From Candidatus Aenigmatarchaeota archaeon (GTDB lineage: Archaea > Aenigmatarchaeota > Aenigmatarchaeia > QMZP01): a DNA stretch of 32,015 bases. The notes beneath the pieces were generated by a model, which was not told the origin of the DNA, searched no databases, and saw only the letters and a program-made list of their open reading frames with translations. This document shows, in pieces, positions 5,729 to 30,100 of the stretch. The DNA lies in the NCBI GenBank assembly GCA_020343575.1, contig CP070801.1, positions 998,273 to 1,030,287 on the forward strand, given 5' to 3'. The position numbers and the translations under genes are program-made. Position 1 is the stretch's first letter, and each line of letters begins with the position of its first letter.

Positions 5729-5747
5729 TCTCCTTGGAGGGAATTTC

Positions 5748-8879: not shown

Positions 8880-8888
8880 ATGAATCTC

Positions 8889-10052: not shown

Positions 10053-10060
10053 ACTCTCAC

Positions 10061-11098
10061 CTAGATCTTGAGCTTTCTCCTTAGTTTAACATAAACACCA
10101 TAATCGATATTTTTCTTATTTTTTATGTAGTCCTCTGTCTTCTTTGCTCTATCTCTTCTCTCAAGAATCTTGTCTGTAACCATAAAGGAAAATGAGTCTG
10201 ATCCTGCTCCAGAACCGTATGATGTCATCAATATCCTGTCTCCTGGTTTTGCCGCATCCAAAATAGCGCACAACCCTACTGGGCTTGAGCCTGAGTATGG
10301 GTTGCCTATCCTCTTAACAACAAACCCTTGCTCAATTTGCTCATTTTTAAAACCGAGTATTTTTGACGCCGTCAAAGGAAACTTCCCGTTGGGCATATGA
10401 AAGACAATATGGTTGAAATCGCTTGGTTTCAGGGACAGTTTTTCCATCAGCAGCTTAGATGCAGATACAACGTGTTTGAAGTATGCAGGTTTTCCTGTGA
10501 ACCTTGCACCATGTGAAGGATAGTCTTCACCCTCCCTTCTCCAAAAATCACTCGTGTCTGTTGTGTAGGAGTGTGTCCCCTCTAAGGTAGCCAAAGGGTC
10601 TTTTCCTATAACAAACGCGCCAGCAGCAGCTGCCGCTGTATACTCGAGAGCGTCTCCAGGTCTTCCCTGTGAGGTATCTGCTCCTATCGCGAGTCCGTAT
10701 TCGATCTCCCTTGCTTTCACCAGTCCATAGCAGCACTGCATGGCAGCTGTCCCTGCCTTGCAAGCGAATTCAAAATCAGCAACCATGATATTCTCACCAA
10801 GTCCCAACGCTTCTGCAACAACCGTTCCACTGGGCTTGACTGCATAGGGGTGTGACTCAGAACCGATATATACAGCACCTATCTTCTTTGGGTCTATTCC
10901 TGCTCTCAGAAGAGCGTTTCTCCCTGCCTCAACTGAAATAGTTATCGTATCCTCATCCATCTCAGGAACAGCTTTCTCCTCAACTATCAGTCCCTTCTTA
11001 AAGCTTTCTGCATCTGTTCCCCAAACCCTTGCAATCTCGTCTACAGAGATTCTGAGTCTGGGTATGTAACAACCATATCCAACTATGCCTATATCCAT
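10061..11098 (-). CDS. Hydroxymethylglutaryl-CoA synthase (archaeal type).
   Basis: N-terminus [24 protein letters not shown] and the catalytic Cys context [13 protein letters not shown]; 345 aa. It is first in the HMGCS-thiolase-DUF35 operon. Confidence 0.9.
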
Positions 11099-15683: not shown

Positions 15684-16124
15684 ATGGCTACGAAAACTGA
15701 GAGATTCATGGCAATATTCATTGGTGTTATTATGTTGGGATCTGTTGCTGGTTTCGCTTTAATCCAGACCATGCCAGCTGGTCCTCAATCACCTGAGATT
15801 CCAAACATAATAAAGAGGCAGCTAACAACTGATGAAACCCTTTTCATCCTGGGGAGTGGTAAGGTTCTGATAGAGGATTTCTATACAATAGATTGTGATG
15901 ATTGTTTTGAGAAGAATGTGGTGTTGGAATCCTTTGCGAACAGGCTCAAGGACTTTGTGGTTCTGGAGGAGGTTGTTGTAAACCAGACCAATCAAACTAT
16001 GCTAAAAATGATAGGATCCGGTGGCACGATTGTGGACCTTGAAAATAAAACTATAGATGAGGAGAACCTCTTGGAGGTTTTCTGTGATATAGCAATCGCG
16101 CAGCCGATTGTGTGCCTTATCTAA
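15684..16124 (+). CDS. Membrane-anchored protein with a CxxC (CDDC) motif in a thioredoxin-like strand-CxxC-helix context; possible extracytoplasmic thiol-disulfide oxidoreductase.
   Basis: N-terminal anchor FMAIFIGVIMLGSVAGFALI, then VLIEDFYTIDCDDCFEKNVVLESFANRL. The fold assignment is pattern-based only. Confidence 0.4.
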   Translation: MATKTERFMAIFIGVIMLGSVAGFALIQTMPAGPQSPEIPNIIKRQLTTDETLFILGSGKVLIEDFYTIDCDDCFEKNVVLESFANRLKDFVVLEEVVVNQTNQTMLKMIGSGGTIVDLENKTIDEENLLEVFCDIAIAQPIVCLI

Positions 16125-19044
16125 CTCCTCCCATTACCTTCAGTAGTTTTGAAAGCTGTACTCTGCCCTGTGCAAGCTCCTTGTTTCCTCCGCCTGATCC
16201 TCCTGATTTCTCACATATCTCTCTTATAAGCTTGCTCATGTCCCTTGTCTTGCTCATGCCTATTATATTCCCGGCTTCATTTGAGAGTATAACTGTTAAT
16301 TCCGGATTCATGGTAAGTAGTTCATTTGCGATTTCTATGAGCTCTTTTCTGTCCCCGCTTATGACCTCGAAAACTCTATCCTTCTTTGCTTTTAAAAGCA
16401 GCTCTTTCGCTTTGTCCCTTGCGACCTCATTCCTTAGGCTTTCAATCTTCTTCTTCTGATCCTTCCAGAAATTGAATACTGTTTTTGAGAGATCTTCAAA
16501 CGTATTCACAGATCTCAGTTTCTCCTCAAGGATTTCCTTCAATTCCATCCTCTCCTCTGGAATCTGGAGCTGCTTCTTTAGTTCTTTTAACTTTGAGTGG
16601 TCTTCCTTGATTTCTCTGAAAAACCTCTCAATGGTTTTTGGCAGTTGTCTCGTCTCTATTGAAAAAATCCTCGATGCCTTCTCAAGCTCCTTGTGAACAT
16701 CTGTTTCCTTGCCCATGATATCGCTTATACTTTCTTGAAGACCAAGGTTTTCCAAAACTTTAAAGGTCTCTCTCGCTATCCTCTCTTGTCCATGGATGAA
16801 TTCATACGCCTTTTTACCTGAAGTGAATTCTATTCTGTTGACTCCATCCTTGATTCTCTCTGTTCTTATAATCTTTATAATCTCTGCCTCTCCTGTCTTA
16901 TCTAGGTGCATACCACCACACGCCTCTGCATCAAAACCATGGCCTATGTTTATCACTCTTACCATCTTTCCTGGAGAGGCGCCTCCTTGATAGAGAACAA
17001 AACCGTATTTCTTCTCTGCAATGTTCCTTGGTAGGAATTCCTTGTCAACGATGAAGTTTCTCTTAACAGTATCATTCGCAATCTTTTCTATCTTCTCTAT
17101 CTCCTCATCAGTGAAGCCCTTGTAATGGGTCAGGTCAATCCTCGATGAATCCAGTCCCTTTTGTGCGCCTGCCTGCCATACATGTGAACCAACAATCTTT
17201 CTAGCAGCTCCTGCAACTATGTGGGTAGTTGTGTGCATCTTCATTAACTGGTGTCTTCTCTCCCAGTCTATTCTCCCTCTCACACTCTGGTTCTTCTTCA
17301 CCCCGCCTGCTTTTCCAATATTATGTACGACAACGTTTCCTATCTTCTGGACATCCTTCACTTTGAACTCCTTGTCTCCTATTGTTAGCATTCCAACATC
17401 GGTTGGTTGTCCACCACCCTCTGGATAGAACAGGGTTTTGTCAAGGATTACCCATACATCGCTCCCTGATCTGACTGTTTTCAGGATCTTTGCTTTGAAG
17501 TCCCTCTTGTAGGGTTCATTGTAGTAAAGGGGTTTTGTTCTGGGTATTCCGGTGACATCAACCCATATCCTTTTCTTCTCAACCTCCTTCTCCCCTACCA
17601 TATGCTGCTCTGTTATTTTCACGTAGAAATCCTCTGGTATGTCAATCTTGATCTTCTTTTCCCTCGCAACTTTCTCAACAAGCTCTGGGGATATTCCATG
17701 GGATATGTAGAACTTTATCAGGGTTTTTTCATCCACCTTGCCCCTCTCAAACTCCCTCTTTATGAGCAGTCCTGCCTTCTCCATTGTTTTTTCATACCTT
17801 TCCCTTTCTAGGGCAAGGATTTTTGTGAACGTGTCAATCCCATTCGTAATCTCGGGGAACATTGGATGTAGGTGTTTGGCATGCAGTCCAGCTATCTTCT
17901 CAAGCTCCATATCAAACTCGAACTCCTTTAGGAAGGACAAGGCCCTCCTGAGCAGTACCCTTAGATTGTAGCCGCCTCCAACATTCGAAGGGATTCCACC
18001 ATCTGTTATTGCGAAGAGAAGGGTTTTCACATGATCCACTGTTGCATAAATTGCCTGCATGGGTTCCACAACTTCGTTAAGGGTTGCGACATTCACACCG
18101 AGTCTCCTTGCTATGTTGTTCCTGATTTTTTTCATATCATGCGTCTGGTCAAAATCCAATCCTCCGGAAAGGATAGAGTATCTGTCAAAGAGTTCTGAGT
18201 CCTTAAGCCCGATCCTCTTCTTTGCCCATTTGACAACAGGACCGAAAACTGCATCATATCCTGTGGGGGTTCCCTGTGTAAACCATACAAGTCTCTCGTG
18301 TCCCCAACCCACATCCACGACCCTTTTCGGGAGTTCTTTCCATTTGTTTCCAACCTTGGTGAACTGCATGAACACGGAGTTAACGAGCTCCAGGCCTCTG
18401 GAGTAGGTTTCTATACATGGACCAAATGCAGAGAAGTCAGGCATTGTCCAGATATCCTCAACGTAGAATATCTCTTTTTCTGGGATTCCCATATCCTTGT
18501 TCAGAAAATTGAAATTCAGTTCGATACATCTATCCTTACAGTATTTCCCAAAAGAATGCTGCCCAGGCATTATAAAGGATGTATGATGACGTCCTGTTAT
18601 GCCTACATTTGGTATGTCATTGAACCTCAGGCACATTTGCGGAACTATCAGCGGATCTGCTGGGTATTCGAAAACAATGTTTCCCTGGTCTATTCTCTGG
18701 AAGTCCTGAATGGATGCAATAGTGAAGAAGAGGTCAGGTCTCCACCTGTCTATTACAGGATACCTAGGAATAGGGGTATGACCTTCCTTCTTGAAGAACC
18801 TCTCGAAATGTTTCCAGGTCCCTATGTAATCCAATTTTCGTTTTGTTATGGGATTCCATATGAATCCGTAATTCTCACATGGCGGATCTGGACAGGTTTT
18901 TCTCTTCTCATTCAGGGTCCAGAAATGCTTCCCACATTTATGGCAGGTTTTTCTATGAAACCCAACATCCTTGAAGAGTTTGACTTGGTAATGCTTCTTC
19001 CAGTCTCTTGCAAAATCCTTCCTCAGGGATTCTTTTGTGAACAT
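16117..19044 (-). CDS. alaS: Alanyl-tRNA synthetase, archaeal type.
   Basis: 975 aa. It has the archaeal N-terminal Zn motif (KTCHKCGKHFW...CPDPPCENYGF), the editing-domain HTTTH...CGGMH motifs, and a C-terminal DHHA1-like GGSGGG region. Confidence 0.95.
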   Translation of the reverse strand: MFTKESLRKDFARDWKKHYQVKLFKDVGFHRKTCHKCGKHFWTLNEKRKTCPDPPCENYGFIWNPITKRKLDYIGTWKHFERFFKKEGHTPIPRYPVIDRWRPDLFFTIASIQDFQRIDQGNIVFEYPADPLIVPQMCLRFNDIPNVGITGRHHTSFIMPGQHSFGKYCKDRCIELNFNFLNKDMGIPEKEIFYVEDIWTMPDFSAFGPCIETYSRGLELVNSVFMQFTKVGNKWKELPKRVVDVGWGHERLVWFTQGTPTGYDAVFGPVVKWAKKRIGLKDSELFDRYSILSGGLDFDQTHDMKKIRNNIARRLGVNVATLNEVVEPMQAIYATVDHVKTLLFAITDGGIPSNVGGGYNLRVLLRRALSFLKEFEFDMELEKIAGLHAKHLHPMFPEITNGIDTFTKILALERERYEKTMEKAGLLIKREFERGKVDEKTLIKFYISHGISPELVEKVAREKKIKIDIPEDFYVKITEQHMVGEKEVEKKRIWVDVTGIPRTKPLYYNEPYKRDFKAKILKTVRSGSDVWVILDKTLFYPEGGGQPTDVGMLTIGDKEFKVKDVQKIGNVVVHNIGKAGGVKKNQSVRGRIDWERRHQLMKMHTTTHIVAGAARKIVGSHVWQAGAQKGLDSSRIDLTHYKGFTDEEIEKIEKIANDTVKRNFIVDKEFLPRNIAEKKYGFVLYQGGASPGKMVRVINIGHGFDAEACGGMHLDKTGEAEIIKIIRTERIKDGVNRIEFTSGKKAYEFIHGQERIARETFKVLENLGLQESISDIMGKETDVHKELEKASRIFSIETRQLPKTIERFFREIKEDHSKLKELKKQLQIPEERMELKEILEEKLRSVNTFEDLSKTVFNFWKDQKKKIESLRNEVARDKAKELLLKAKKDRVFEVISGDRKELIEIANELLTMNPELTVILSNEAGNIIGMSKTRDMSKLIREICEKSGGSGGGNKELAQGRVQLSKLLKVMGGVR

Positions 19045-19083
19045 AAAACCGCCTTGGGATTATACATTACCAGTTATTAATAA

Positions 19084-19094
19084 TTATATATAAT
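19084..19094 (+). promoter_or_regulatory. TATA-box-like element (TTATATATAAT) centred about 25 nt upstream of the 19114 ATG.
   Basis: Seen directly in the alaS / 19114 divergent intergenic region. Confidence 0.4.
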
Positions 19095-19113
19095 TGTATA
19101 ACAATATTATAAT

Positions 19114-20988
19114 ATGCGGGGTCAGGCAAGCTTTATATTAATAATCGGGGTTCTGCTTGTTATCGCAATTGTTATTTATTATGCATATCAGGGATTTGCT
19201 CCACCACCTGTTGTTGGAGAAGAACAAAGGATGGTTCAGGAGATGATTGAAAGCATAATAACAAGTGGCACAGAACTTTCTCTGAAAGCAATAGAACTAC
19301 AGGGAGGTTACGTGATACCACCTAATCAGAGTCTTTTATTTACAAACATAGGAGTTCCCTACTGGCAGATATGTCAAAATGATGTATCCCCCAATTTTGA
19401 TGATGTTAAGGAGAGGTTCGAGAAAGGGATAGAGTTTTACGTTAACAATCATACAAAGGATATCGAGGATTTCTTTGGGGAAAACCTTTCACTAAGCAGT
19501 GTTTCCAGAGTTGATGTGAACATACTGGATAACAAAATAGACGTGGCTGTTTACATGCCAACCGAATTCCGGGGCTATCCCATAAGGCAACCCTATAGGA
19601 TATCTGTTCCCACCAAGTTCAGGTATTTGTTTAATTTTGCAAAGGATATTGTAACAGAGATAAACAAAGATCCAACACAGGGTGGTAGATTCTTTGAAGT
19701 ATTTACCGTTGCGTCTCTTTACCGTTCCAGATATCTGCCCACAATTGGTTTTCTGACAGAGTGTGGGGAACCCTTACGACTTACCCCTCAACAGGTTTCA
19801 CATGGACTGTATGGCATTATTACTTACACAATAACACACTTTCTCTGGTGGCAGGAAATTGTGCCTAATTCACTGACTTATGCAGTGAATGATGTAAATG
19901 GTAAGCAATATTTAGATTTAGAGCCAATGTTATTCTTGCCACAGGGATTTGAGATTGCTTCATCCAGTGGTATTAACATCCAAAATAGACAATTTATAGC
20001 CAGTTTTCCTTCAATCCCATACTGCTATACCACTTACAACATAAAGTATTCTGTTGCTTACCCAATTGTTATAAAGATCACTGATTCTGAAACTGGCTAT
20101 GATTTCAATTTCGCTGTTTACGTTAATGTGGATGAGATGGAACCTGGTGATTGTGATGCCATAATCACAATACCGGGTCAGGAGACGTGCACAGACCTGC
20201 CATGTTCAGCAAGTATAAGGGTTGTTGATTGTAATGGGATACCCTTGAGTGGAGCGACTGCATACTTCGGTGACTGTCTTGTAGGTACATCAGATTCGAA
20301 TGGTTATATTAATGGAGAAATATTATGCGGCACATACCTGTTAGATATCTATCATAGTGGAGACTATGGTTATTATTCTAAGACTGTCTCTTCCACAAAC
20401 ATAGACGGAACTTATACTCTCTGCAAAAAACCAGATTTTGCTGCCTACTTTAATGAGGTAGAGATATTGTATTGGGGCTACGATGAGTATAATACTTATT
20501 TATCATGCTATCCGTGTGCAGAACCACTGGATTGTCCTGATACCTTTACTTGGCAGTCAACTGATTGTACTTCAAGTGCTGTTAGTGACAGGTGTGTAAT
20601 GATAACATTGACCTCAGCTCAAACAGGAATATCATATCCTATACACAATATTGACTATGAAAATATTCCAATAGAAGAGTGTTTGGATCGAAATTATTTT
20701 GAGGCTCATCCAGTAGAGTGTTCGGGGTGTACCCTGCACAGAGTTGATATGGATAACATACCTGCTGGCACATACGATGTGGTTGCAGAACTCAAGAACC
20801 CTGCAGATAATAAACATGTGGGATACTTTGAGTTGGATGATTTCAATCTACTTGAAAACACTAAAAATTTGTACATAAGCATACCAAAGTTTGGTAACTC
20901 TACACGTCAACCAGATCCTTGGCAAAAACAGTGTGTTGTAGATAAGGTGAAAGCCTGTCCTAGTATAGAACTTATGAGGCAAACATGA
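19114..20988 (+). CDS. Secreted Cys-rich protein with an archaeal class-III (type IV pilin-like) signal peptide; contains a carboxypeptidase-regulatory-like beta domain.
   Basis: The N-terminus MRGQASFILIIGVLLVIAIVIYY matches a short basic leader, an RG|Q cleavage context and a hydrophobic helix. Later, IRVVDCNGIPLSGATAYFGDCLVGTSDSNGYINGEILCGTYLLDIY resembles CarboxypepD_reg. There are many Cys in the C-terminal half. Confidence 0.8.
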   Translation: MRGQASFILIIGVLLVIAIVIYYAYQGFAPPPVVGEEQRMVQEMIESIITSGTELSLKAIELQGGYVIPPNQSLLFTNIGVPYWQICQNDVSPNFDDVKERFEKGIEFYVNNHTKDIEDFFGENLSLSSVSRVDVNILDNKIDVAVYMPTEFRGYPIRQPYRISVPTKFRYLFNFAKDIVTEINKDPTQGGRFFEVFTVASLYRSRYLPTIGFLTECGEPLRLTPQQVSHGLYGIITYTITHFLWWQEIVPNSLTYAVNDVNGKQYLDLEPMLFLPQGFEIASSSGINIQNRQFIASFPSIPYCYTTYNIKYSVAYPIVIKITDSETGYDFNFAVYVNVDEMEPGDCDAIITIPGQETCTDLPCSASIRVVDCNGIPLSGATAYFGDCLVGTSDSNGYINGEILCGTYLLDIYHSGDYGYYSKTVSSTNIDGTYTLCKKPDFAAYFNEVEILYWGYDEYNTYLSCYPCAEPLDCPDTFTWQSTDCTSSAVSDRCVMITLTSAQTGISYPIHNIDYENIPIEECLDRNYFEAHPVECSGCTLHRVDMDNIPAGTYDVVAELKNPADNKHVGYFELDDFNLLENTKNLYISIPKFGNSTRQPDPWQKQCVVDKVKACPSIELMRQT

Positions 20989-23900
20989 ACTACAAAAACG
21001 TATTCATGGGTGTATTTGCAATATTGGCAGCGACATTAATATTCGATCTTCCTGTTGTTGGTGCTACACAGATCAACATCTATTATGATGTCGGTGGTGG
21101 TACTTACATCAAACAGGATGATGTTACCATAGAGCCTGAAAATCTCATTGACAAAACTGTATCAGTTCAGAGTATAGGCGCTTCTTGGATTAATGTAAAG
21201 GTCATTATAAACATCACCAACGGGGGCATGGGTGATCTGGAGAGTGTTCATATATACAAATGTAAGGATCTTTCCCCAAGCGATTGTGTAGAAACAGAGA
21301 CACCAGATATGTACAGTATTGTCAATAATGATCTAGATCTAGTAATGCTCTGGGGCGATGTGTCCCAGATTATAATATCATGCTCGTCCAACCCGGGCTC
21401 CTGCCTTGAGATTGCGAACCTTTTCTTCCTTTTCAAAGTAAATGATAATGGAAAAACCGTTTGGGTTGGCATCTGGAACAAGATAGAAAGAAGGACTTAT
21501 GATTTTGCTTCACCATATCTCTTTGAGTACAGCCTTGATGAGATAGACTTATATGCACAAGCTGGTTTTGCGGTACCTGTGAAGGAATTCATTCAGACAT
21601 ATCTGACAATACCATTCAATCCTGCCTGGGTTTCGGCTGCAATTTTCAAGGGGGCAGACTCCCTTTATGAGCTCAGTATCGCCTCTTCAGGACTCCAGCA
21701 ATCATCTCCGAATTTCTATACACAGGACCACACCAATGACACTGTTCATAGTATAACAAGAGACTATTCCTTTATATTCTCAGAGGCTAGCCAGGACATA
21801 TTCAATCCCACAACCCTGAGACTGAACCCAAGTTTTTTCTGTGGGCAGTATGGGTGCGAAACAGAACTTGGAGAAACCTCTGCTAACTGTTGCTATGATT
21901 GTCCTTGCTCTGAAGGCTACTATTGTGATGGTGGAACTGAAGGCATATGCAAACTGGAAAGCTTGATATCCCTGAGTCTATATGAACCACCAAACACAAC
22001 GATCACAAACTGTAATGAACAGCATGTGATTAATGTAACAGTAGAAGTGGGTTATGCTCCTTCAGACACGGAGTTGACCAGAAGTGAATACAAACTGAAT
22101 GAGACGGTATATTCAACACAATGTGAAGAGATACTTTCTAATGTTTACCGCTGTCCTATAACCATTCCTCCAATACCAGGCTGCCAAGAAGGGGAGTATG
22201 CGATTGGTCCAAATTATCTGAACTTTACCATAAGCTATACAGATGGTCCCAACGCGAAAAGTAAGGACCTGGTTCTTCAGTTCCCTGACATAACCGTGGG
22301 TTCCTTTACATGTGGTCAAGATGGTTGTGAATCGGAACTAGGAGAGAACTCCAATAACTGCTGTTATGATTGTGGGTGTCCGAATGGTTACTGTGATATA
22401 GAGAATGGTGCACAACCAAACACAGGAACCTGCAGACAAGACATAACTGTTAATAATCTCCAGATAACAGCAAACCCAACTCATTTCTACTCACACAACA
22501 ACATATCTGGTGATAGGGTAGATATTGTATTGCAGATAACTGATGCGCCTTTGAGTCTGGAGATAACTAGTAGCTCGTGTGAAATGGATTGCCTGAATAA
22601 CTGCTCTGTTTCATGTGGTGTTTCATGTTCAGAGATATCATCCTCTGACCCGAACATCTTCAATGCGAGCTGCCTACTGACCTTTTTGATAAGCGATTAC
22701 AACAAAACAATAGATTATTCTCTGTTCCCAACCATGAATATATCCGTAATCTACACCAATGGTTCGTCTGGTGACGTGAACAAAACCTTTAGCAAGCTTT
22801 TCAGTACCATTTCAGTTGGTTCCAGTTGGTGTGGGGATGGGGTGTGTGCACCTGATGAAAACCAATTAAACTGTTGTTATGACTGTGGGTGTCCAGAAGG
22901 ATATTATTGCGATACTGCCAACAGTGCTGCGCCAACTGCAGGGGATTCGTGTAAATCAGAAGAGGGTATTAGGTTAGTTGTGGATGGTGTGGAAGTAACC
23001 ACATTTGACTATTCTGATATGTCCCATTACACCGTCCTTATGGCGCATGTAGAGAATGCACCAAGTAGCCTCAATGGTTCAACTTCATGCATGTTCGGTG
23101 ATGGTAGTAGCCTGTACTGTAACATGGTATGTGAACGCTTCGGGACTGACCCTAGTTCCCACATACTTCAATGTAACTTATCTATTCCTGTGATAGACTA
23201 CAAAACATCTCCATTCTACAACCCAAGCACAAAGCAGATAGTCATTGGCCCCAACACCATGAACTACTCTGTGACCTTCAACAACGGATCTGGTTTGATA
23301 AGCAAGGAGCTAAGTGATGGTTTCTCAAATATTGTCATAAACGTTAAGCCGAGGTGCGGAACTGGTGCTGGATACCTGGGATTCGAGACTGAACGCTGCA
23401 TGCCCTACAACAGGACACTGGCATGTGAGACTGATTTGGGTGAAAGCTCTGCAACATGCTGTTGTGATTGTCCGTGTACTAGTGGCCAGTATTGTGATAT
23501 AAATGCTAACGGTGGTCGTGGAAGATGTATATCAGTTGCTGAAATCCATCTTGTGACAGATGAATTTGATCCACAGCCCTTAGAATGTGAGATTAATCCG
23601 ACGAGAGATTTTTGTGTATTTTATGAGCAGATGGATATTGATTTGCATATAGAGCCTACAGCAAACTACAGCTTTGTTTCTGCATCTTATGAGATGGGTG
23701 GAGAAAAACGTGAGTTATGGAGTTGCATACCTGGGTCTGATAACTCTCCATGGAATAAATATAACTGCTCAATTGTGATGGCGCCGATAGAATCTGAAAC
23801 GGATATATATGAAGGTACGATCACAAAGGATATTGAAATATCTGTAGAGATTGAATCCACCGGTTTGCTTCACACAACAGTTACAGACACAGGCAACTTC

Positions 23901-24785
23901 CAGATAAAGAAGGTGGATTCGAAGGCATTGGAGACGTTGGAGGAGCAGTTAGAAAATCTTGAAGCTGATAAAAGTAGCTGGAAAACACTCAGAGATATTA
24001 TAATAGCTGTTCTTGTAATTCTTGCTCTTTGGTGTCTATGTACATGCATACCAATATGTGAGGGTTCTCCATGTTGTCCATGGCCTAGTTGTTCAGATTG
24101 TTGGGGCATCTATTCATGTATCGTAGCGGCTGTAATGCCGTTCTTGATATCTATCATCAATAAGATTAACGAGATTGAAAACCAGATAATGGCCATAAAT
24201 GCTGCACAAAATCCTGAAGAACTTTATGTAGCAGAACAAGGTACAGCAACCTTGGTGTTAGGTATAATTGGTGCTATAGCAGCAATATATTGTGCATTTT
24301 ACATTGGTGGTGGTGGGTTTGGAAAAAAGGATGTGAGTACAAACTCTTCTTCTACTTATAGTAAAATGTTCAGTTTAGGTTCCCAAGCATTAAATACCTT
24401 TAGCCTTAGTCCGTTTAGTGGTTCAGAATGCTATGCAGATTATGATTGTACTCTTAAGCATGGTTTTGGGTGGTACTGTTGCGAGACTGCGTCTGGTTTC
24501 ACGTGTTTGAATATCCAATGTTCTCAAGCCCAACAAGAAGGTTATGGAAATGGATGGGGTAATGGCAACAATGGTGATAATGGTGGATATTATGGAAATG
24601 GTGATAAAAAGAAAACATGTGGTCAACTTGAAAAGGAAAAGAATGTAAAGCCTGCATGTCACTGTTGTAACGATGATGGTTATGATACCGGTGCTTCTTG
24701 TAGTGGGAATAAAAAACCTGGCGACAAATGTGGCTTGGGTAATACCCGTGGTAAATGTAAAGAGGGGATGTGTAAACACTCATAG
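20985..24785 (+). CDS. 1266-aa Cys-rich surface/membrane protein: Sec-type signal, four [8-Cys module + beta domain] repeats, a coiled coil, about 3 hydrophobic segments with a Cys cluster, and a Gly/Asn/Tyr-rich, Cys-rich C-terminal tail.
   Basis: The ATG overlaps the upstream TGA (ATGA at 20985-20988), with GAGG 5 nt upstream. Signal FMGVFAILAATLIFDLPVVGA. The repeats are listed separately. Confidence 0.85.
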   Translation: MNYKNVFMGVFAILAATLIFDLPVVGATQINIYYDVGGGTYIKQDDVTIEPENLIDKTVSVQSIGASWINVKVIINITNGGMGDLESVHIYKCKDLSPSDCVETETPDMYSIVNNDLDLVMLWGDVSQIIISCSSNPGSCLEIANLFFLFKVNDNGKTVWVGIWNKIERRTYDFASPYLFEYSLDEIDLYAQAGFAVPVKEFIQTYLTIPFNPAWVSAAIFKGADSLYELSIASSGLQQSSPNFYTQDHTNDTVHSITRDYSFIFSEASQDIFNPTTLRLNPSFFCGQYGCETELGETSANCCYDCPCSEGYYCDGGTEGICKLESLISLSLYEPPNTTITNCNEQHVINVTVEVGYAPSDTELTRSEYKLNETVYSTQCEEILSNVYRCPITIPPIPGCQEGEYAIGPNYLNFTISYTDGPNAKSKDLVLQFPDITVGSFTCGQDGCESELGENSNNCCYDCGCPNGYCDIENGAQPNTGTCRQDITVNNLQITANPTHFYSHNNISGDRVDIVLQITDAPLSLEITSSSCEMDCLNNCSVSCGVSCSEISSSDPNIFNASCLLTFLISDYNKTIDYSLFPTMNISVIYTNGSSGDVNKTFSKLFSTISVGSSWCGDGVCAPDENQLNCCYDCGCPEGYYCDTANSAAPTAGDSCKSEEGIRLVVDGVEVTTFDYSDMSHYTVLMAHVENAPSSLNGSTSCMFGDGSSLYCNMVCERFGTDPSSHILQCNLSIPVIDYKTSPFYNPSTKQIVIGPNTMNYSVTFNNGSGLISKELSDGFSNIVINVKPRCGTGAGYLGFETERCMPYNRTLACETDLGESSATCCCDCPCTSGQYCDINANGGRGRCISVAEIHLVTDEFDPQPLECEINPTRDFCVFYEQMDIDLHIEPTANYSFVSASYEMGGEKRELWSCIPGSDNSPWNKYNCSIVMAPIESETDIYEGTITKDIEISVEIESTGLLHTTVTDTGNFQIKKVDSKALETLEEQLENLEADKSSWKTLRDIIIAVLVILALWCLCTCIPICEGSPCCPWPSCSDCWGIYSCIVAAVMPFLISIINKINEIENQIMAINAAQNPEELYVAEQGTATLVLGIIGAIAAIYCAFYIGGGGFGKKDVSTNSSSTYSKMFSLGSQALNTFSLSPFSGSECYADYDCTLKHGFGWYCCETASGFTCLNIQCSQAQQEGYGNGWGNGNNGDNGGYYGNGDKKKTCGQLEKEKNVKPACHCCNDDGYDTGASCSGNKKPGDKCGLGNTRGKCKEGMCKHS
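21840..21950 (+). repeat. Cys-rich module 1 (protein-level repeat): CGQYGCETELGETSANCCYDCPCSEGYYCDGGTEGICK.
   Basis: Shared pattern CG-x2-G-C-E-x-E-L-G-E-x-S-x-N-CC-Y-D-C-x-C-x2-G-Y-(Y)-C-D-x(5-11)-C, aligned by eye with modules 2-4. Confidence 0.8.
22311..22436 (+). repeat. Cys-rich module 2: CGQDGCESELGENSNNCCYDCGCPNGYCDIENGAQPNTGTCR.
   Basis: Same Cys spacing as module 1. Confidence 0.8.
22830..22955 (+). repeat. Cys-rich module 3: CGDGVCAPDENQLNCCYDCGCPEGYYCDTANSAAPTAGDSCK.
   Basis: Same Cys spacing as module 1. Confidence 0.8.
23424..23531 (+). repeat. Cys-rich module 4 (N-terminally diverged): CETDLGESSATCCCDCPCTSGQYCDINANGGRGRCI.
   Basis: It retains the E-x-(E/D)-L-G-E-x-S-x-x-CC-x-D-C-x-C-x2-G-x-Y-C-D core. 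Confidence 0.7.
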
Positions 24786-24832
24786 ATGTAAAGAAGGGTT
24801 TTGAGGGATATCAAGTTCTATATTTCTACAAT

Positions 24833-25141
24833 TTACCCGAACAGACTTGACAATCCCTCTGCTGCTTCCTCTGCTTTCTTTTCTGGTTTTTCCTCTTTCT
24901 TCTTCTCTTTTTTTTTCTCTTCTGGCTTCTCTGCTGGAGCTTGTGCAGGCGCGGCAGTAGCTGCGGAAACAGTCTGTTTTATTGCCTCATCTATGTTGAC
25001 ACCTTCAAGGCTCGATACCAAGGCTTTCACTTTCGCGGCTTCGGTCTTTGCGCCAGCGGCATCAAGCACCTTCTTTATTCCTGCCTCATCTATCTTCTTT
25101 CCAGCTGAGTGCAAGAGTAGTGCTGCATATACAGTTTCCAT
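24833..25141 (-). CDS. rpl12: Ribosomal stalk protein P1 (archaeal L12).
   Basis: [19 protein letters not shown]..., an Ala/Pro hinge, an EK-rich linker and the canonical C-terminus [19 protein letters not shown] lies upstream of the ATG. Confidence 0.95.
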
Positions 25142-25157
25142 TCAAACACCTCCATGA

Positions 25158-26162
25158 TTATTTTTTCTTTTTATCATGCTTTTTCTCTTTCTTTTTGGGT
25201 TTTACTTCTTTTTTAGCTTTTGGTTTCGGTTCTTTTTTCTTCTTGGGTTTCTTCTCTTTGGGTTTTTCTTTCTTTTTCTTTTCTTCCTTTTTCTTTTCTA
25301 GTTTCTCTTTGGGCTCTTCCTTCACCTCTTTCTTTATCATGTCCTTCAGGGTCTCTGCTTGGGTTTTCGCCTTCGCGATTAGTGATTTAGCCGTATCCTT
25401 TGTGAGTATGTCCGCCTGCAGAGCAATGGTGTAGGCCTCTTGGTGAGCCCTTGAAAGGAAAAGAGAAACATTATCCTTTGTGTAGTAGTTCACATTGTAG
25501 GCAAGGCTGAATGCCTGTGAACTTGCAAGTTGCAAATCCTCAAGATATTTCTCGGTTGGTATGAAAAGAATATCCTTTGTGTAAACATGTCCATTCTCCC
25601 AGGCAGCGAGTAGGTTGAGCCCGATCTCCATGGGTTCAACACCGAGCTTCACCAAAACGTCAGCGAGGGTTTTGTCTATCGTATCTCCTTCCTCTGCAAC
25701 CACCGTGTCTTCCCTTACTGTTATTTTCTCCCCCTCGACTGTTGCGGGGATCTTTGCCCTCTGGAGCTCCCCTATAACCGGTCCTGGTGGAAGAGGTGTT
25801 GGTCCTGCCCTGACGATTATATCTATAGGAGCAACATCACCGGCCTTTGCAAAGGCCTTGGATTTGGACTGGTTTATGGTTTTTGCCAGCCTGAATGGGT
25901 CTGTTTTGCTGAGCAATAGGGCGGGCTCGCCCTGAATGTATTTATCCATTTCTTCAATGCCCTTCAGGCCACAATCCTTTAGGGCAAGTTTTATTATTCT
26001 CTTCTTGACCATCTTTATTACAGCCTCGTTCCTAAGCTTGTTTCTGATCTCATGCAGCTGCCTTCCAGGTAGCTTGAACATATCGATTATTCCTATGACT
26101 GGATACTTCCTGAGGTCTTCTTTAACTTCCTTCAGTTTTTGCTTCTTTTTTTCCGAAACCAT
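25158..26162 (-). CDS. rplP0: Ribosomal stalk protein P0 (archaeal L10) with an atypical Lys-rich C-terminal tail.
   Basis: The L10/P0 N-domain (YPVIGIIDMFKLPGRQLHEIRNKLR...) is clear. The last ~58 aa are K/E/P-rich and end ...KKHDKKKK. Confidence 0.9.
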   Translation of the reverse strand: MVSEKKKQKLKEVKEDLRKYPVIGIIDMFKLPGRQLHEIRNKLRNEAVIKMVKKRIIKLALKDCGLKGIEEMDKYIQGEPALLLSKTDPFRLAKTINQSKSKAFAKAGDVAPIDIIVRAGPTPLPPGPVIGELQRAKIPATVEGEKITVREDTVVAEEGDTIDKTLADVLVKLGVEPMEIGLNLLAAWENGHVYTKDILFIPTEKYLEDLQLASSQAFSLAYNVNYYTKDNVSLFLSRAHQEAYTIALQADILTKDTAKSLIAKAKTQAETLKDMIKKEVKEEPKEKLEKKKEEKKKKEKPKEKKPKKKKEPKPKAKKEVKPKKKEKKHDKKKK

Positions 26163-26175
26163 ACTATCCCTCTGG

Positions 26176-26814
26176 TTATCCTCCTACTTCGACCCTTACT
26201 GGCTTTCCCATGGTCAGCTTGATGAACATGGATCTTATGTTGGTCTTTCCTTTAGGAAGTTTTTCCCTGACTGCATTGTAAACAGCCTCAATGTTTTTTG
26301 AAATCTTCTCATCATCCATCTTATCTGTTCCCACAGGAACATGAACAACAGGGCTCTCCTTAACAAATATCCTGATGGATCTCTTTGCCCTCTGAACGAA
26401 TGGCTCTACGTTTACCTTCGGGGGGATAGGCTTTGGGACCTTTCCCCTAGGTCCAAATATCACTCCAAAGCTCTTTCCTATGAGCGGCATAAGTGATGCT
26501 TCTCCAAAAAACCAGTCGTATTCATTCGCTATCTTTTTGAGTTTTTTCTTGTTCTTTGCCAGGTTTTCTATCTCTGATTTCTTGATAACAAGGTCTGCGT
26601 GCTTCTTTGCTTCTGTTTCCAAGGTATCCACAACGAAGGCAACCTTCTGGTCCTTCCCTCTGCCCTCTGGTAGCATGAGTTCAAAGTTAAATCTGTTCTC
26701 TGGCTTCTTCAGATCCAACCCCTTTAGATTGATAGAAAAATCCCAGGTTTGAACGAATTTCCTGGGTTTTGAATTTTCCTTCGCTTCCTTTACCTTCTCG
26801 AGAATGTTTTTCAT
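26176..26814 (-). CDS. rpl1: Ribosomal protein L1.
   Basis: Typical archaeal L1 (KPRKFVQTWDFSINLKGLDLKKPENRF...; ...GPRGKVPKPIPP...). GGAGG lies 6 nt upstream of the ATG. Confidence 0.95.
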   Translation of the reverse strand: MKNILEKVKEAKENSKPRKFVQTWDFSINLKGLDLKKPENRFNFELMLPEGRGKDQKVAFVVDTLETEAKKHADLVIKKSEIENLAKNKKKLKKIANEYDWFFGEASLMPLIGKSFGVIFGPRGKVPKPIPPKVNVEPFVQRAKRSIRIFVKESPVVHVPVGTDKMDDEKISKNIEAVYNAVREKLPKGKTNIRSMFIKLTMGKPVRVEVGG

Positions 26815-26884
26815 CTTATCCTCCTGCCTAAGCAGTAAAGCGGATTAGATTATATTGTTTTTTAAAAGTATTTAAATGTTTTGT

Positions 26885-27586
26885 CTAAAAACCAGGAACA
26901 TAATGGATTGCTCTTCCTCTCCCCCTTCTCTTGAGGAATCCCTTCTTCACAAGGTCGTTTATCTCTCTCAGGGCAGTTTTGTCTCTAATCCTGAATCTCT
27001 TCACATAATCTCCTGTTGTAATTCTTCCGCTCTTCCTGACCACTTTCAGGGCTTTAATCTGTCTGTCAGAAACATCGAAGACCTTGCTCTCCACCATTCT
27101 TCTCTCCCTGACGAGAAGGTTTGCGAGTTTGTCAATTCTGTCTATAAGATTCTTTTCCCTCATCAGTTCCTTTGAGGTTTTGTTCAGTCTGTTTTCCACC
27201 TCTATTATCTTTCTGACAATATCCCTGTAGTTCTTTTCTATCTTCTTGTCCATGTCTGCTCTCTTGCTGTCCAGGTGGTGGAGCCTGTTCTCATGGGTGT
27301 CTTTCAATCGTTTCGTGAACTCGTAACTGTGGCTCAGCCACTCCATCACGTTGTCCACGTCCTCTGAAACCCTTTCCTGTTCCCTCTTTATGTTGTCTGT
27401 TATGAATTCCTCTCCGATTTTGTAAAGTCCAATTATAACCAAAAATAGACCCATTAGCATGTCTATATAAAAGATGCTTGTTACTATTCCTGATATCAAC
27501 ACGGCTCCAAGTATTATGAACACTAACCAGAACACCTTATTCCTGTGCATACCGAATGTGTATGTGAGTCCGCTTTCTCCATTCAT
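26885..27586 (-). CDS. Membrane-anchored coiled-coil protein with a C-terminal winged-HTH, inserted between rpl11 and rpl1.
   Basis: Two hydrophobic segments (VFWLVFIILGAVLISGIVTSIFYI, MLMGLFLVIIGLY), a long heptad-like K/E/R region, and the C-terminus RQIKALKVVRKSGRITTGDYVKRFRIRDKTALREINDLVKKGFLKRRGRGRAIHYV. Confidence 0.7.
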   Translation of the reverse strand: MNGESGLTYTFGMHRNKVFWLVFIILGAVLISGIVTSIFYIDMLMGLFLVIIGLYKIGEEFITDNIKREQERVSEDVDNVMEWLSHSYEFTKRLKDTHENRLHHLDSKRADMDKKIEKNYRDIVRKIIEVENRLNKTSKELMREKNLIDRIDKLANLLVRERRMVESKVFDVSDRQIKALKVVRKSGRITTGDYVKRFRIRDKTALREINDLVKKGFLKRRGRGRAIHYVPGF

Positions 27587-27607
27587 GTAGTTATCTTATA
27601 GTGAAAA

Positions 27608-27616
27608 CTTTTAAAG
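27608..27616 (-). promoter_or_regulatory. TATA-box-like element (minus strand CTTTAAAAG) centred 26 nt upstream of the 27586 ATG.
   Basis: Seen directly. It suggests the inserted gene has its own leaderless promoter. Confidence 0.4.
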
Positions 27617-27652
27617 CTTTTGGTTAGGAAATATGGATTGAAAAATAGAAAA

Positions 27653-28294
27653 TTAAGTCTTTTCTTCTTTTTTTTCTTCCTTTGGTTTTTCCTCTTTTGC
27701 TTCTTCCTTTTTCTCTTCTGGTTTCTCTTCCTTTACTTCCTCTGGCTTCTCCTCTTCCTTTACTTCCTCTGGTTTGGCTTCTTCTGCTGGAGCTTCTGCT
27801 ATCCTTGCTGCTTCTGCCGCTGCTTTTGCTTCCTCTTCTGCTCTCTTTTCTTCTTCGTATCTCTGGATCTCCTCTTCTGTGACAGCACCCTCGCCTATTG
27901 TCACACCCATGCTCCTGCACGTTCCCTTTACCTGGTTCAAAAAAGCATCAGAATCAGAACCGAATTTCTGTCTTGCAATCTTCTTTACCTGCTCCTCTTT
28001 CAGGTCTCCCACCCTCTTCTTCCCTGCTTCCTCAGATCCCTTATCGAGACTGAGTTCTTTCTTCACAAGAGCAGCAACCGGTGGCGAACCAACCTCAACC
28101 TTAAATTTATGTGTTTCAGTATCAACCGTTACCTTCACAGGGATTTTCATTCCTGCCAGATCCTTAGTCTTCTCATTTATCTCTGCCACCACATCTGGGA
28201 TGTTAACCTTGAGTGGTCCCAGTGCTGGTCCCAGGGGCGGGCCTGCAGACGCCTTCCCGCCTTCAACCATCGCTTCGATTGTTTGTTTTGTCAT
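27653..28294 (-). CDS. rpl11: Ribosomal protein L11 with a ~60-aa Ala/Glu/Lys-rich C-terminal extension.
   Basis: Canonical L11 core (GGKASAGPPLGPALGPLKVNI...VGSPPVAALVKKE...), then ...EEKRAEEEAKAAAEAARIAEAPAEEAKPEEVKEEEKPEEVKEEKPEEKKEEAKEEKPKEEKKEEKT. Confidence 0.9.
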   Translation of the reverse strand: MTKQTIEAMVEGGKASAGPPLGPALGPLKVNIPDVVAEINEKTKDLAGMKIPVKVTVDTETHKFKVEVGSPPVAALVKKELSLDKGSEEAGKKRVGDLKEEQVKKIARQKFGSDSDAFLNQVKGTCRSMGVTIGEGAVTEEEIQRYEEEKRAEEEAKAAAEAARIAEAPAEEAKPEEVKEEEKPEEVKEEKPEEKKEEAKEEKPKEEKKEEKT

Positions 28295-28303
28295 AGAATC
28301 CCT

Positions 28304-28792
28304 CTATAGTTTCTCTTCTTCCTTCTTTTCTTCCTTTGGTTTTTCCTCCTCTTCCTTCACTTCCCTCTTTATAATCTTTATGAACTCCGTCGCGATTGTT
28401 ACTGGTATGGGTATGGAGGCCTCAAGCAGCTCGATTGTTACCTCGTCTTTGACAGCATCAACCCTTGTGATCTTTCCCTTTTCGCCCCTGAAGGGTCCAC
28501 CTATGATCTCTACAATGTTCCCTTCGTCTACCTTTATTCTGTCTTTCTTCAGTTCAAGGAAGTGTTTTATCTCTTCCAGCTCAATGGGTTTCTCTATGAT
28601 TCCCCGGACATGCATCAGTCCCTGCACAGCCTTGTGTATCGCTCCAGAGCTCCCCTCTGCAAAGACGTATCCCTTTATCTCTGCTGGGTGGAATATTGCC
28701 TTTAATGGAAGGGATTGAGCCCTAACGTTGCTCGTCATGATGTCTATAACTATATCCTCTCTTCCTGATGTTGTCCTGATCGCATAAATCAT
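28304..28792 (-). CDS. spt5: Transcription elongation factor Spt5 (archaeal NusG) with a short EK-rich tail.
   Basis: MIYAIRTTSGREDIV... is the NGN domain. The KOW motif is GNIVEIIGGPFRGEKGKITRVD. The track begins at a GTG at 28804. The ATG at 28792 matches the usual MIYA(V)RTT start. Confidence 0.9.
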   Translation of the reverse strand: MIYAIRTTSGREDIVIDIMTSNVRAQSLPLKAIFHPAEIKGYVFAEGSSGAIHKAVQGLMHVRGIIEKPIELEEIKHFLELKKDRIKVDEGNIVEIIGGPFRGEKGKITRVDAVKDEVTIELLEASIPIPVTIATEFIKIIKREVKEEEEKPKEEKKEEEKL

Positions 28793-28796
28793 TTTC

Positions 28797-28970
28797 TCAC
28801 GCACCTGGTAGCAAAAAAGTGAAAAGCAGGAATATCACAAATCCTATAAAACCTATCAAAGCTATGCCCAGAGCACATATCTTGGTAGAACTAAGGAATT
28901 CTTCCTTCCCGGGCTTCCTTGATATTTGTAAAACCCTTCTATACTTCCTGATGTTCTCCTTTATGTTCAT
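28797..28970 (-). CDS. secE: Preprotein translocase subunit SecE / Sec61-gamma (57 aa; below the ORF-track length cut-off).
   Basis: My translation: MNIKENIRKYRRVLQISRKPGKEEFLSSTKICALGIALIGFIGFVIFLLFTFLLPGA. It has the conserved RVL-x3-KP-x2-EF motif, a single C-terminal TM, and the conserved position upstream of spt5-rpl11. Confidence 0.85.
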   Translation of the reverse strand: MNIKENIRKYRRVLQISRKPGKEEFLSSTKICALGIALIGFIGFVIFLLFTFLLPGA

Positions 28971-29035
28971 AGCAATTCCTGTTCGTTAAGGATAATATAT
29001 AAGTATATGCTTTTTAATGTTTATCATGCCTGCTT

Positions 29036-30100
29036 TTAAATATCCCTTTCTATTAGAAAATCTGCAAAGGTCTTCAGCTTCTTCTTTGCATCAGACTCTG
29101 GTAGGATTGGGTCTATATCCTTCCATGCATCGGATACGATATCCCTTGCAACCCCACTTGCGTAATCAATGGAACCGTACTTATGTAAGATATCTATCGC
29201 TTCTTTTATGAGTTCTTTATCCCTGGTATGCATATCTAGAATCTGAAGGAGGCGTTTCTTGTCTCCCTCGCTCGCTTTTTTGAGGCTGTATATAACCATA
29301 AGGGTTCTCTTTCCTTCGGTTATATCATCTCCGTAGCCCTTTTTCTCTTGAAACTTTCCCCCACTTGCACTCAGTATGTCATCTTGTATCTGGAAAGCGA
29401 TCCCGATGGATTCGGCAAACCTTCCAATCTTTTCCTCCTGTTCTTCTGTCCCTCCAGAGAGGGCGACTGCGAGCTTTGCTGCCATTCTGGCAAGGGTTCC
29501 TGTCTTGCAGGAACACATCTGCAGGTATTGCTTTTCAGTGATGCCATCCGCTTTTCCCTTGTGCCACCAGATATCCAGTCCCTGTCCTATACTGAGATTG
29601 ATCATCTCCTTTACATATATCTCATAAACCCATAGCAGTGTCTTGGGGTCAATGGTGTCCCTGTTTTTGATCAGTATTGCAAGAGGCATGTAGAACATAA
29701 AACTGCTTGTATTTACTGCAACATCCACACCATATATCTTGTGTATGCATGGTTTCCCTCTCCTAAGATCTGAACCATCCTCCACATCATCAGCCATCAA
29801 GGTCCCATTGTGAATGATCTCGGGTATTATAGCGAAATCCTGAATCTTTTCAAGATCCGCGCCCATTGCCTTGGCTATCAAAAGGAACAGGGTGGGTCTC
29901 CATCTCTTTCCTCCCCTTTTAAGAATATCCCAGACAGGTTCTGTTATTGATTTGTTTATTGAGTCCAGGTCGTATTCGTGCCTTGTTTTTCCTAGGATTT
30001 CCTCAAGGTAGCCACTATCCATTTTCTCTGGAAAATGCTCCCTTATCTTGGAGTCTATGAATGGTTTTTTCTCCTCAAGAAATCTGATTATATCGTCCAT
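29036..30100 (-). CDS. Polyprenyl diphosphate synthase, probably geranylgeranyl diphosphate synthase.
   Basis: GGKRWRP, the first Asp-rich motif LMADDVEDGSDLRRGKP, and the second Asp-rich motif FQIQDDIL. Confidence 0.85.
   Translation of the reverse strand: MDDIIRFLEEKKPFIDSKIREHFPEKMDSGYLEEILGKTRHEYDLDSINKSITEPVWDILKRGGKRWRPTLFLLIAKAMGADLEKIQDFAIIPEIIHNGTLMADDVEDGSDLRRGKPCIHKIYGVDVAVNTSSFMFYMPLAILIKNRDTIDPKTLLWVYEIYVKEMINLSIGQGLDIWWHKGKADGITEKQYLQMCSCKTGTLARMAAKLAVALSGGTEEQEEKIGRFAESIGIAFQIQDDILSASGGKFQEKKGYGDDITEGKRTLMVIYSLKKASEGDKKRLLQILDMHTRDKELIKEAIDILHKYGSIDYASGVARDIVSDAWKDIDPILPESDAKKKLKTFADFLIERDI

Follow-up and report, generated by a model that had tools for sequence, protein, structure and literature searches.

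What kind of surface structure would an uncultivated archaeon build from a long protein in which cysteine-rich modules alternate with β-rich domains? The question is raised by a gene in a 32,015-nucleotide (nt) stretch of DNA from a Candidatus Aenigmatarchaeota archaeon (GenBank assembly GCA_020343575.1, contig CP070801.1, positions 998,273 to 1,030,287 of the forward strand), which was analyzed at its full length and is referred to here as the window. Aenigmatarchaeota are uncultivated DPANN archaea, and to our knowledge nothing is known experimentally of their cell surface. The gene, annotated here as the target, directly follows a second gene, the partner, and the two form a cassette. Our reading, to which we assign a probability of roughly 0.6, is that the target is an exported, membrane-anchored, rod-like protein that forms a core envelope or contact complex with the partner. 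A preliminary description, made from the sequence alone, had called the target an uncharacterized Cys-rich surface architecture without a nameable family, and the database searches agree with it. Pfam-A 2025 returned 0 families for the target at E<=1 (36 homologues gave scattered single matches), NCBIfam r20 gave noise only (13 bits vs a cut-off of 275), and sequence searches of the PDB (phmmer and hmmsearch with the protein, the family profile, and the profile of its Cys module) returned nothing significant. No confident family match therefore emerged from Pfam, NCBIfam, or the PDB.

The elements of the target, given with their amino acid (aa) positions and the basis of each call, are as follows. 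Open reading frame is abbreviated ORF, AlphaFold2 AF2, transmembrane segment TM, isoelectric point pI, immunoglobulin Ig, and predicted local distance difference test score pLDDT.

20985..24785, plus strand: target gene, 1266 aa (ORF list and family search)
20985..21065, plus strand: Sec-type signal peptide, aa 1-27, predicted cleavage VGA/T (homologue N-termini)
21066..21824, plus strand: N-terminal, membrane-distal β-rich head, aa 28-280 (AF2, pLDDT mostly >90)
21840..21950, plus strand: Cys module 1, aa 286-322, 8 Cys (motif and alignment)
21960..22298, plus strand: β-sandwich domain 1, aa 326-438, 4 conserved Cys (AF2; Foldseek matches Ig-like)
22311..22433, plus strand: Cys module 2, aa 443-483, 8 Cys (motif and alignment)
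22443..22817, plus strand: β-sandwich domain 2, aa 487-611, 6 Cys (AF2 and alignment)
22830..22952, plus strand: Cys module 3, aa 616-656, 8 Cys (motif and alignment)
22962..23345, plus strand: β-sandwich domain 3, aa 660-787 (AF2 and alignment)
23355..23528, plus strand: Cys module 4, aa 791-848, 8 canonical Cys and a 22-aa insert (family alignment)
23538..23918, plus strand: β-sandwich domain 4, aa 852-978 (AF2 and alignment)
23919..23984, plus strand: amphipathic stalk helix with a heptad pattern, aa 979-1000 (AF2)
23985..24164, plus strand: putative hydrophobic hairpin of TM1, a Cys-rich turn (10 Cys), and TM2, aa 1001-1060 (hydropathy and AF2)
24165..24239, plus strand: return helix, aa 1061-1085, probably extracellular and packed on the stalk helix (Cys covariation)
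24240..24320, plus strand: third hydrophobic segment, aa 1086-1112, family-variable and missing from many homologues (hydropathy)
24321..24785, plus strand: clade-specific tail, aa 1113-1266, 14 Cys, pI 7.9 (homologue lengths and composition)

The encoded protein contains 80 Cys (6.3%). An AF2 model of aa 1-1125, computed from an 82-sequence alignment, has a mean pLDDT of 84.7 and a predicted template modelling score (pTM) of 0.42. It consists of a signal helix (3-21), the β-rich head (28-280), an all-β domain of ∼110-130 aa after each Cys module, and helices at 980-1021, 1036-1075, and 1089-1108; the β-rich stretches that the preliminary description had placed after each module are thereby recovered as domains. 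Whole-chain Foldseek searches of the PDB and BFVD returned multi-Ig, MG, and cadherin-like chains only, with template modelling scores (TM-scores) of 0.06-0.12, and the matches include CD109, A2ML1, IgA, DSCAM, and phage Ig-like proteins. Because Foldseek returns generic Ig-like chains only, the ectodomain is modelled as a probable chain of Ig-like sandwiches that resembles no one relative in particular. An α2-macroglobulin/CD109-like identity was considered and rejected, as the thioester motif GCGEQ is absent (there is no CGEQ in the sequence) and the TM-scores are 0.08-0.09. The head domain matched no sequence family.

A surface location of the target is suggested by its signal peptide, its acidic ectodomain (pI 4.2), and a Cys covariation, described below, that points to disulfides. 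All 81 homologues have an N-terminus of this kind, which in nearly all of them is a Sec-type signal peptide ending in A-x-A/T, and A27 is invariant. It should be noted that the signal peptide, with the consensus MNxKxxxxExFAIxAxYLIxxLPxAxA/T, has a pairwise identity of 0.39, above that of the head domain, and a conserved Glu inside its hydrophobic part, which one would not usually expect of a Sec signal that is simply cleaved off. The description of the β-rich stretches as sequon-bearing was correct in that sequons are present; their enrichment, however, is weak, with 21 N-x-S/T sites observed vs 14.4 expected from composition. Since this is only 1.5-fold, it was not used as evidence for a surface layer (S-layer).

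The Cys modules are the most distinctive part of the protein. Four modules had been proposed, with starts at residues 286, 443, 616, and 814. The first three fit the proposed motif exactly, and a fourth CC.DC.C core is indeed found at aa 825-831. In the family alignment, however, the first Cys of module 4 is C791 (C791-G792) and C814 is the second, and between the two lies a 22-aa clade-specific insert that carries C805. The four units, each composed of a module and the next domain, show mutual similarity far above shuffled controls (local alignment z 6-23); comparison of the β parts by themselves shows similarity for B1/B3 and B2/B3 (z 8-9) and none for B4. A tandem-repeat search of positions 19000-25000 found none at the DNA level in either gene, which argues that the target repeats are old protein-level duplications. 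Each module has an invariant Glu and an invariant Asp and no conserved His. According to AF2, the modules have little regular secondary structure apart from a small terminal β-hairpin (e.g., strands 312-315 and 321-324).

Whether such a module is a disulfide knot or a metal site was a question of the preliminary description, and the pattern of Cys loss favors disulfides. Among 313 aligned modules, C1 and C3 are lost together 17 times, C2 and C5 16 times, and C6 and C8 twice. Single losses are almost absent, and the paired losses are scattered over different modules and lineages, indicating disulfides 1-3, 2-5, and 6-8. Because the Cys vanish strictly in specific pairs, a disulfide ladder is preferred over a metal cluster, and the 8-Cys module appears to be a granulin-type ladder rather than a metal site. 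The same logic of co-occurrence extends to the insert of module 4: C805 and an extra Cys, C827 (which creates a 'CCC'), are both present in 12 cases, both absent in 70, and found singly in 0, suggesting that C805 pairs with C827.

The coiled coil, the hydrophobic segments, and the Cys-rich tail that had been recognized after the repeats are all present. The coiled-coil helix ALETLEEQLENLEAD runs on into TM1 in the AF2 model (helix 980-1021), and hydropathy places the three hydrophobic segments at aa 999-1029, 1039-1064, and 1085-1112, with many homologues ending before the third. Here, too, covariation is informative. The stalk residue aligned to L985 is a Cys in most homologues, and the column of N1072, in the return helix, is a Cys in 63/82 sequences. 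Within the core subfamily the two Cys are together in 48 sequences, both missing in 19, and alone in 0; all 15 apparent single occurrences belong to a distant subfamily with four Cys in that helix region. We infer that a disulfide links the stalk and return helices in most relatives and was lost in the clade of the window. Because these Cys appear to be paired, both helices would lie outside the cell and the hydrophobic segments between them would form a membrane hairpin.

The turn between the hydrophobic helices (aa 1017-1045, 24033..24119) contains 10 Cys, CLCTCIPICEGSPCCPWPSCSDCWGIYSC, and would face the cytoplasm or sit in the membrane; Cys are frequent in the homologous region and poorly aligned. 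The tail (aa 1113-1266, 154 aa) consists of two Cys clusters around a Gly/Asn/Tyr low-complexity stretch. It is found only in the closest relatives and is absent from relatives of ∼1130 aa. Its pI, well above that of the ectodomain, fits a location on the cytoplasmic side, while its 14 Cys speak otherwise. In place of the tail, members of the distant subfamily have C-terminal extensions of 400-600 aa with Cys-rich and Ig-like parts. Two low-complexity antisense ORFs of 94-118 aa within the 3' end of the target (24423..24783, minus strand) are regarded as chance ORFs.

The architecture is a family property. A search of 5.8 billion proteins defined a family of 81 clusters, whose family alignment shows 24-96% identity to the window protein, most of them 1050-1900 aa in length and covering ∼70-90% of the query. 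None of the 81 is informatively named, and the only Pfam domain is CARDB, in one of them. The same architecture is retained at 25-35% identity: four CC.DC.C cores lie near residues 280, 435, 610, and 785 in most homologues, with most Cys columns invariant or close to it. Scanning GTDB with one genome per species, on the basis of a 9-sequence alignment, yielded 23 full-length loci, some genomes having two. Every named locus, like every named cluster, belongs to Candidatus Aenigmatarchaeota. No relative was found among the 2.9 million viral contigs of IMG/VR, and the literature searched on Cys-rich surface proteins of DPANN archaea and Aenigmarchaeota, and on a named repeat, yielded no description of the family.

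Conservation in the core subfamily is highest in the modules, with pairwise identities of 0.47-0.54 (0.36-0.45 when the Cys columns are excluded), followed by the β domains (0.26-0.38), the head (0.29), and the membrane region (0.17-0.22). By this measure the head lies at the family average and shows no hypervariability, which counts against a rapidly diversifying adhesin tip.

The module itself extends well beyond this family. A profile of 45 positions, built from 93 modules and searched against 1.84 billion representatives, returned 574 proteins at E<=1e-3 and 182 at E<=1e-10. Among 115 newly returned module proteins, 59 have the family head domain and 56 do not. Some of the latter repeat a 4-Cys short form, CGDGxC...GE....CPxDC, 8-23 times in tandem (P0098, P0109, P0151, and P0163), in line with the earlier remark that this short part recalls spacers of many surface proteins. 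Others carry tandem full 8-Cys modules without intervening β domains, several of them with lipobox-like N-termini (P0105, P0156, and P0157), and P0105 (L030:6001-8736) lies amid bacterial-type genes, including a Ser/Thr kinase and an FHA-sigma54 activator. The full 8-Cys module is thus not unique to the target and is found in tandem in bacterial proteins too. No Pfam or NCBIfam repeat model matched the module-only and short-repeat proteins (E<=0.1 or 0.01), and the module profile gave 0 matches in the PDB at E<=10. Found in many proteins yet covered by neither a family model nor a PDB match, the 8-Cys module is widespread and still uncurated as a domain. It is the fixed architecture and the cassette, not the module itself, that are specific to Aenigmatarchaeota.

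Several known Cys-rich repeats were compared with the module. The half-module of granulin has the connectivity I-III, II-V, IV-VI (PMC11035057). A laddered connectivity is likewise suggested for the target module, 1-3, 2-5, (4-7), 6-8, by covariation and not by chemistry, and the two have a CC doublet, small size, and a terminal β-hairpin in common. They differ in that the Cys number 8 in the target module, against 6 or 12 in the granulin half-module and module, and form a single CC doublet plus a CxC where granulin has four CC doublets; the target module also has other loop lengths and carries the invariant Glu and Asp. Moreover, granulin is a secreted growth factor, whereas the target module would be an inter-domain spacer of prokaryotic surface proteins. 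Granulin (PF00396) was not matched by the target at E<=1 in Pfam, and a test for the 12-Cys/four-CC pattern failed. We use 'granulin-like' for the apparent connectivity, as a likeness that carries no claim of homology.

The connectivity of epidermal growth factor (EGF) modules is 1-3, 2-4, 5-6, to which laminin EGF modules add 7-8. An EGF or laminin-EGF identity was rejected, as C2 covaries with C5 and not C4, C6 covaries with C8, and no Pfam EGF match was obtained. The short CGDGxC 4-Cys repeats are presumably comparable to the Myxococcus cysteine-rich repeat, TIGR02232/DUF4215, although this model was matched neither by the target (E<=1) nor by the short-repeat proteins (E<=0.1 or 0.01). The short repeat has the same motif as the first half of the target module (C1, C2, C3/4, C5, Gly, Glu, and Asp). 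The target module adds a second half, C-x-C...G-Y-Y-C-D...C, with two extra disulfides, and alternates with β-sandwiches, whereas the short repeats form tandem arrays.

The second line of evidence is the partner gene, which is present together with the target across the family. Its features, and the junction between the two genes, are listed below.

19083..19093, plus strand: TATA-like element ATTATATATAA, ∼27 nt before the partner ATG (read from the sequence)
19114..20988, plus strand: partner gene, 624 aa, 20 Cys (ORF list)
20976..20988, plus strand: putative coupling junction, GAGG (Shine-Dalgarno-like) 5 nt before the target ATG and an ATGA overlap (read from the sequence)

The preliminary description had paired the target with an upstream gene bearing a pilin-type signal, and this pairing is borne out widely. 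In 27 of 28 loci the gene immediately preceding the target is a homologous partner, and the remaining locus has no upstream DNA. Some loci have one partner followed by two tandem target copies. The N-terminus of the window partner, MRGQASFILIIGVLLV, consists of MRGQASF and a hydrophobic helix (aa 1-25). All 23 partners examined from related loci start with M..[KR][GA/S]Q.[ES][FLIV] and ∼20 hydrophobic residues, a motif that the window partner also fits. EppA-type substrates typically carry a Q at +1. Thus, the partner N-terminus has the form of an archaeal class III-like (prepilin-like) signal or anchor. In common with archaeal type IV pilin-like proteins, the partner has a short basic leader, G/A then Q, and ∼20 hydrophobic residues. 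However, it has a Glu at +3 rather than +5, the partners are multidomain proteins of 600-800 aa while pilins are small, and the cassette, unlike type IV pilin-like systems, has no gene for a prepilin peptidase or an assembly ATPase. No Pfam family, including the models for class III signals and archaeal pilins, matched the partner at E<=1, and database searches with a profile of the partner family likewise produced no usable match.

An AF2 model of the partner, built from a 16-sequence alignment (a profile search for the partner family returned the same 16 proteins again), has a pLDDT of 79.9 and comprises an N-terminal helix, a long helix, an α/β domain, and β-sandwiches. The top Foldseek match is SlaB of Sulfolobus acidocaldarius (8qox_B, E 2.8e-5, probability 0.99). 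However, the TM-scores are only 0.12/0.16, with a root-mean-square deviation of 22.8 Å over 314 columns, and a partner domain of ∼80 aa superposes on carboxypeptidase-regulatory-like (CarboxypepD_reg-like) domains at 2.3 Å. Against the NCBIfam SlaB model NF040788 the partner scores E 0.09 and 11.7 bits vs a cut-off of 700. The SlaB match is read, with reserve, as a shared generic β-sandwich.

Archaeal promoters usually have a TATA element near -26. Based on the position of the TATA-like element, which is the likely promoter, the ATGA in which the partner stop and the target start overlap (related loci have similar close spacing or overlap), and the GAGG sequence, we infer that partner and target form one leaderless transcript and are translationally coupled. 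Rfam models, run over the whole window, detected nothing within either gene.

The cassette is flanked by archaeal housekeeping genes.

16117..19044, minus strand: alanyl-tRNA synthetase (AlaRS), flanking the cassette
24833..26814, minus strand: ribosomal P1/L12, P0/L10, and L1, flanking the cassette

Further flanking genes encode L11, Spt5, a polyprenyl synthase, a KaiC-like ATPase, thiolase/3-hydroxy-3-methylglutaryl-CoA (HMG-CoA)-synthase-like proteins, and a GT4 glycosyltransferase. The order in the window (16117..30100) and in loci L001-L004, from genomes with only ∼33% identity between their cassette proteins, is AlaRS, the cassette, P1-P0-L1, a small unannotated ORF, L11-Spt5-(SecE-like), the polyprenyl synthase, and the KaiC-like ATPase. 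The cassette lies between AlaRS and P1-P0-L1-L11-Spt5 also in three genome groups whose targets are only 32-35% identical to the window protein. In the most distant member the gene context is different and the partner is still adjacent. This shared synteny at 32-35% identity, the assignment of all named loci to Aenigmatarchaeota, and the lack of relatives in the viral contigs suggest that the pair is vertically inherited.

Three other regions of the window deserve mention. Between L1 and L11, a 233-aa ORF (26885..27586, minus strand) begins with hydrophobic segments, has a charged, helical central part, and matches nothing in Pfam; an unannotated ORF of 208-236 aa is found at the same position in L001-L003. 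Adjacent thiolase and HMG-CoA-synthase-like genes with a 134-aa ORF beside them (8475..11098, minus strand) resemble the archaeal acetoacetyl-CoA thiolase/HMG-CoA synthase cluster that opens the mevalonate pathway; Aenigmarchaeota are reported in one paper to have no mevalonate-pathway genes for membrane synthesis. Lastly, a giant ORF of >1900 aa that is cut by the left window edge (2..5761, minus strand) starts with MKSTLGQSEILVAALFIVLISG, in which the [GA]Q.E motif followed by hydrophobic residues recurs as in the partner. It has 85 N-x-S/T sequons vs 32.6 expected, a pI of 4.3, and CarboxypepD_reg as its sole, sub-threshold Pfam match. By these features, it would be a stronger glycoprotein or S-layer candidate than the target.

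Taken together, these data suggest the following model. The sequence and the AF2 model show a Sec signal followed by the β-rich head, four units of a four-disulfide module and an Ig-like β-sandwich, the stalk helix, and a probable two-helix membrane hairpin; once exported, the target would stand on the cell as a rod. The modules would serve as stiff joints that link the β domains and withstand heat and proteases and, being the best-conserved parts with an invariant Glu and Asp, are probably also contact or cation sites. The partner would be anchored in the membrane through its prepilin-like N-terminal helix, and translational coupling suggests that the two proteins form a complex of fixed ratio. 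Given the apparent vertical inheritance, the invariant architecture, and the location often beside ribosomal genes, the pair may be a core envelope complex of Candidatus Aenigmatarchaeota, such as a spacer or spike layer, that may make cell-cell contact. We accordingly do not read the target as a variable adhesin, a metalloprotein, or a gene of a mobile element. A more ambitious version, in which the cassette is the main envelope or host-contact apparatus of Aenigmatarchaeota and a new type of surface layer rigidified by a granulin-like four-disulfide domain, is put forward only tentatively, and we think it more probably wrong than right.

Several points weigh against the proposed rod and complex. 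The association of partner and target is deduced from gene adjacency and coupling. The genome scan was keyed to the pattern [NV]CCYDCGC, with which neither absence outside Aenigmatarchaeota nor prevalence in the phylum is established. The Foldseek matches apply to whole chains (TM-scores 0.06-0.16) and say little about the individual domains, the head above all, and the putative C4-C7 bond is assigned by elimination. Finally, two cassettes or tandem copies in some genomes, and a distant subfamily with long extra C-terminal regions in a different context, are also compatible with adhesins.

A special case of the envelope complex would be that the cassette encodes the S-layer of Aenigmatarchaeota, the target serving as a SlaB-like membrane-anchored stalk and the partner as a second lattice component. 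In Sulfolobales, slaA and slaB form a two-gene operon, so that SlaA/SlaB (PDB 8qox) offer a parallel to the cassette. The target resembles SlaB in its signal peptide, its β-sandwich domains, its stalk helix, and the C-terminal position of its membrane anchor; the acidic ectodomain, the phylum-wide synteny within a housekeeping region, and the partner's SlaB match and faint NCBIfam hit also speak for an S-layer. The partner's similarity to SlaB, however, appears to lie on a generic CarboxypepD_reg-like β-sandwich, with the low TM-scores and bit score given above, and SlaB is not among the 50 best Foldseek matches of the target. No S-layer Pfam family was matched, and beyond the partner's sub-threshold 11.7 bits no Pfam or NCBIfam family connects the cassette with SlaA/SlaB. 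The target is ∼3 times longer than SlaB and has Cys modules and a hairpin anchor in place of a long trimeric coiled coil and a single TM. The partner, unlike SlaA, is N-terminally anchored by a prepilin-like helix, so that both proteins of the cassette would be membrane-anchored, and the gene order is reversed in size. The modest sequon count, next to that of the giant ORF at 2..5761, makes the latter the better coat candidate.

Other rods invite the same comparison. Archaeal Ig-chain S-layer glycoproteins such as Haloferax volcanii csg, and eukaryotic rods of alternating Cys-rich and Ig/fibronectin type III modules, share with the target an Ig-like string, a C-terminal anchor, an acidic ectodomain, and N-glycosylation sequons. 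The target differs from both in its unrelated sequence, its four-disulfide modules between β domains, and its hydrophobic-hairpin anchor. A Cys content of 6.3% is unusual for S-layer proteins. On balance, an S-layer is possible, though we would not expect it.

Alternatively, the target could serve an episymbiotic DPANN cell as an adhesin for host attachment or as a contact spike, with the distal head binding a host ligand and the rod spanning the gap. The long rod with its distal head, the paralogues and second cassettes, module expansions such as P0099 with 10 modules, and the prepilin-like signal on the partner are in keeping with this role, and DPANN archaea are reported to be mostly ectosymbionts. 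Nevertheless, the head is no more variable than the family average, no recognizable lectin or adhesin domain was found with Pfam, and both the architecture and the genomic position are fixed phylum-wide, which is unusual for host-specific adhesins. We consider a host-specific adhesin, like an S-layer, an unlikely but serious candidate.

Far less probable is that the modules hold Zn or Fe-S clusters and the target is an extracellular redox or metal-handling protein. Eight conserved Cys per ∼40 aa with scant regular secondary structure would suit such a role, and small 8-Cys archaeal 'dark' domains elsewhere have been proposed as metal binders (PMC13607799). Yet 17, 16, and 2 paired co-losses with hardly any singles are the signature of disulfides and not of four-ligand sites, the modules have no conserved His, they sit within an exported acidic ectodomain, and their connectivity obeys the granulin ladder.

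That the target serves a virus, provirus, or other mobile element as an envelope or fusion glycoprotein, possibly a fusexin/HAP2-like one, is scarcely credible: the layout is superficially alike (signal peptide, disulfide-bonded β-rich ectodomain, stem helix, and C-terminal hydrophobic helices), but the IMG/VR contigs hold no relative, the gene sits in conserved synteny between AlaRS and ribosomal protein genes with no integrase nearby, and the 50 best whole-chain Foldseek matches in the PDB or BFVD include no class II fusogen and are all generic Ig-like.

Archaeal multi-Ig surface proteins are known; to these the envelope complex proposed here adds a granulin-like spacer domain that the literature searched does not describe, and a partner gene that is conserved. 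Hundreds of proteins of bacteria and archaea contain the 8-Cys module or its 4-Cys short form, for which there is neither a Pfam or NCBIfam model nor a solved structure. If the module, with its predicted granulin-type ladder, were defined as a family, many surface proteins now called 'hypothetical' would be annotated, and the module could act as a compact, stable disulfide scaffold. The finding overturns nothing and is useful for domain annotation and for the cell biology of DPANN archaea, in which a phylum-wide, syntenic two-gene surface cassette provides a lead into how Aenigmatarchaeota build their envelope or contact partner cells.

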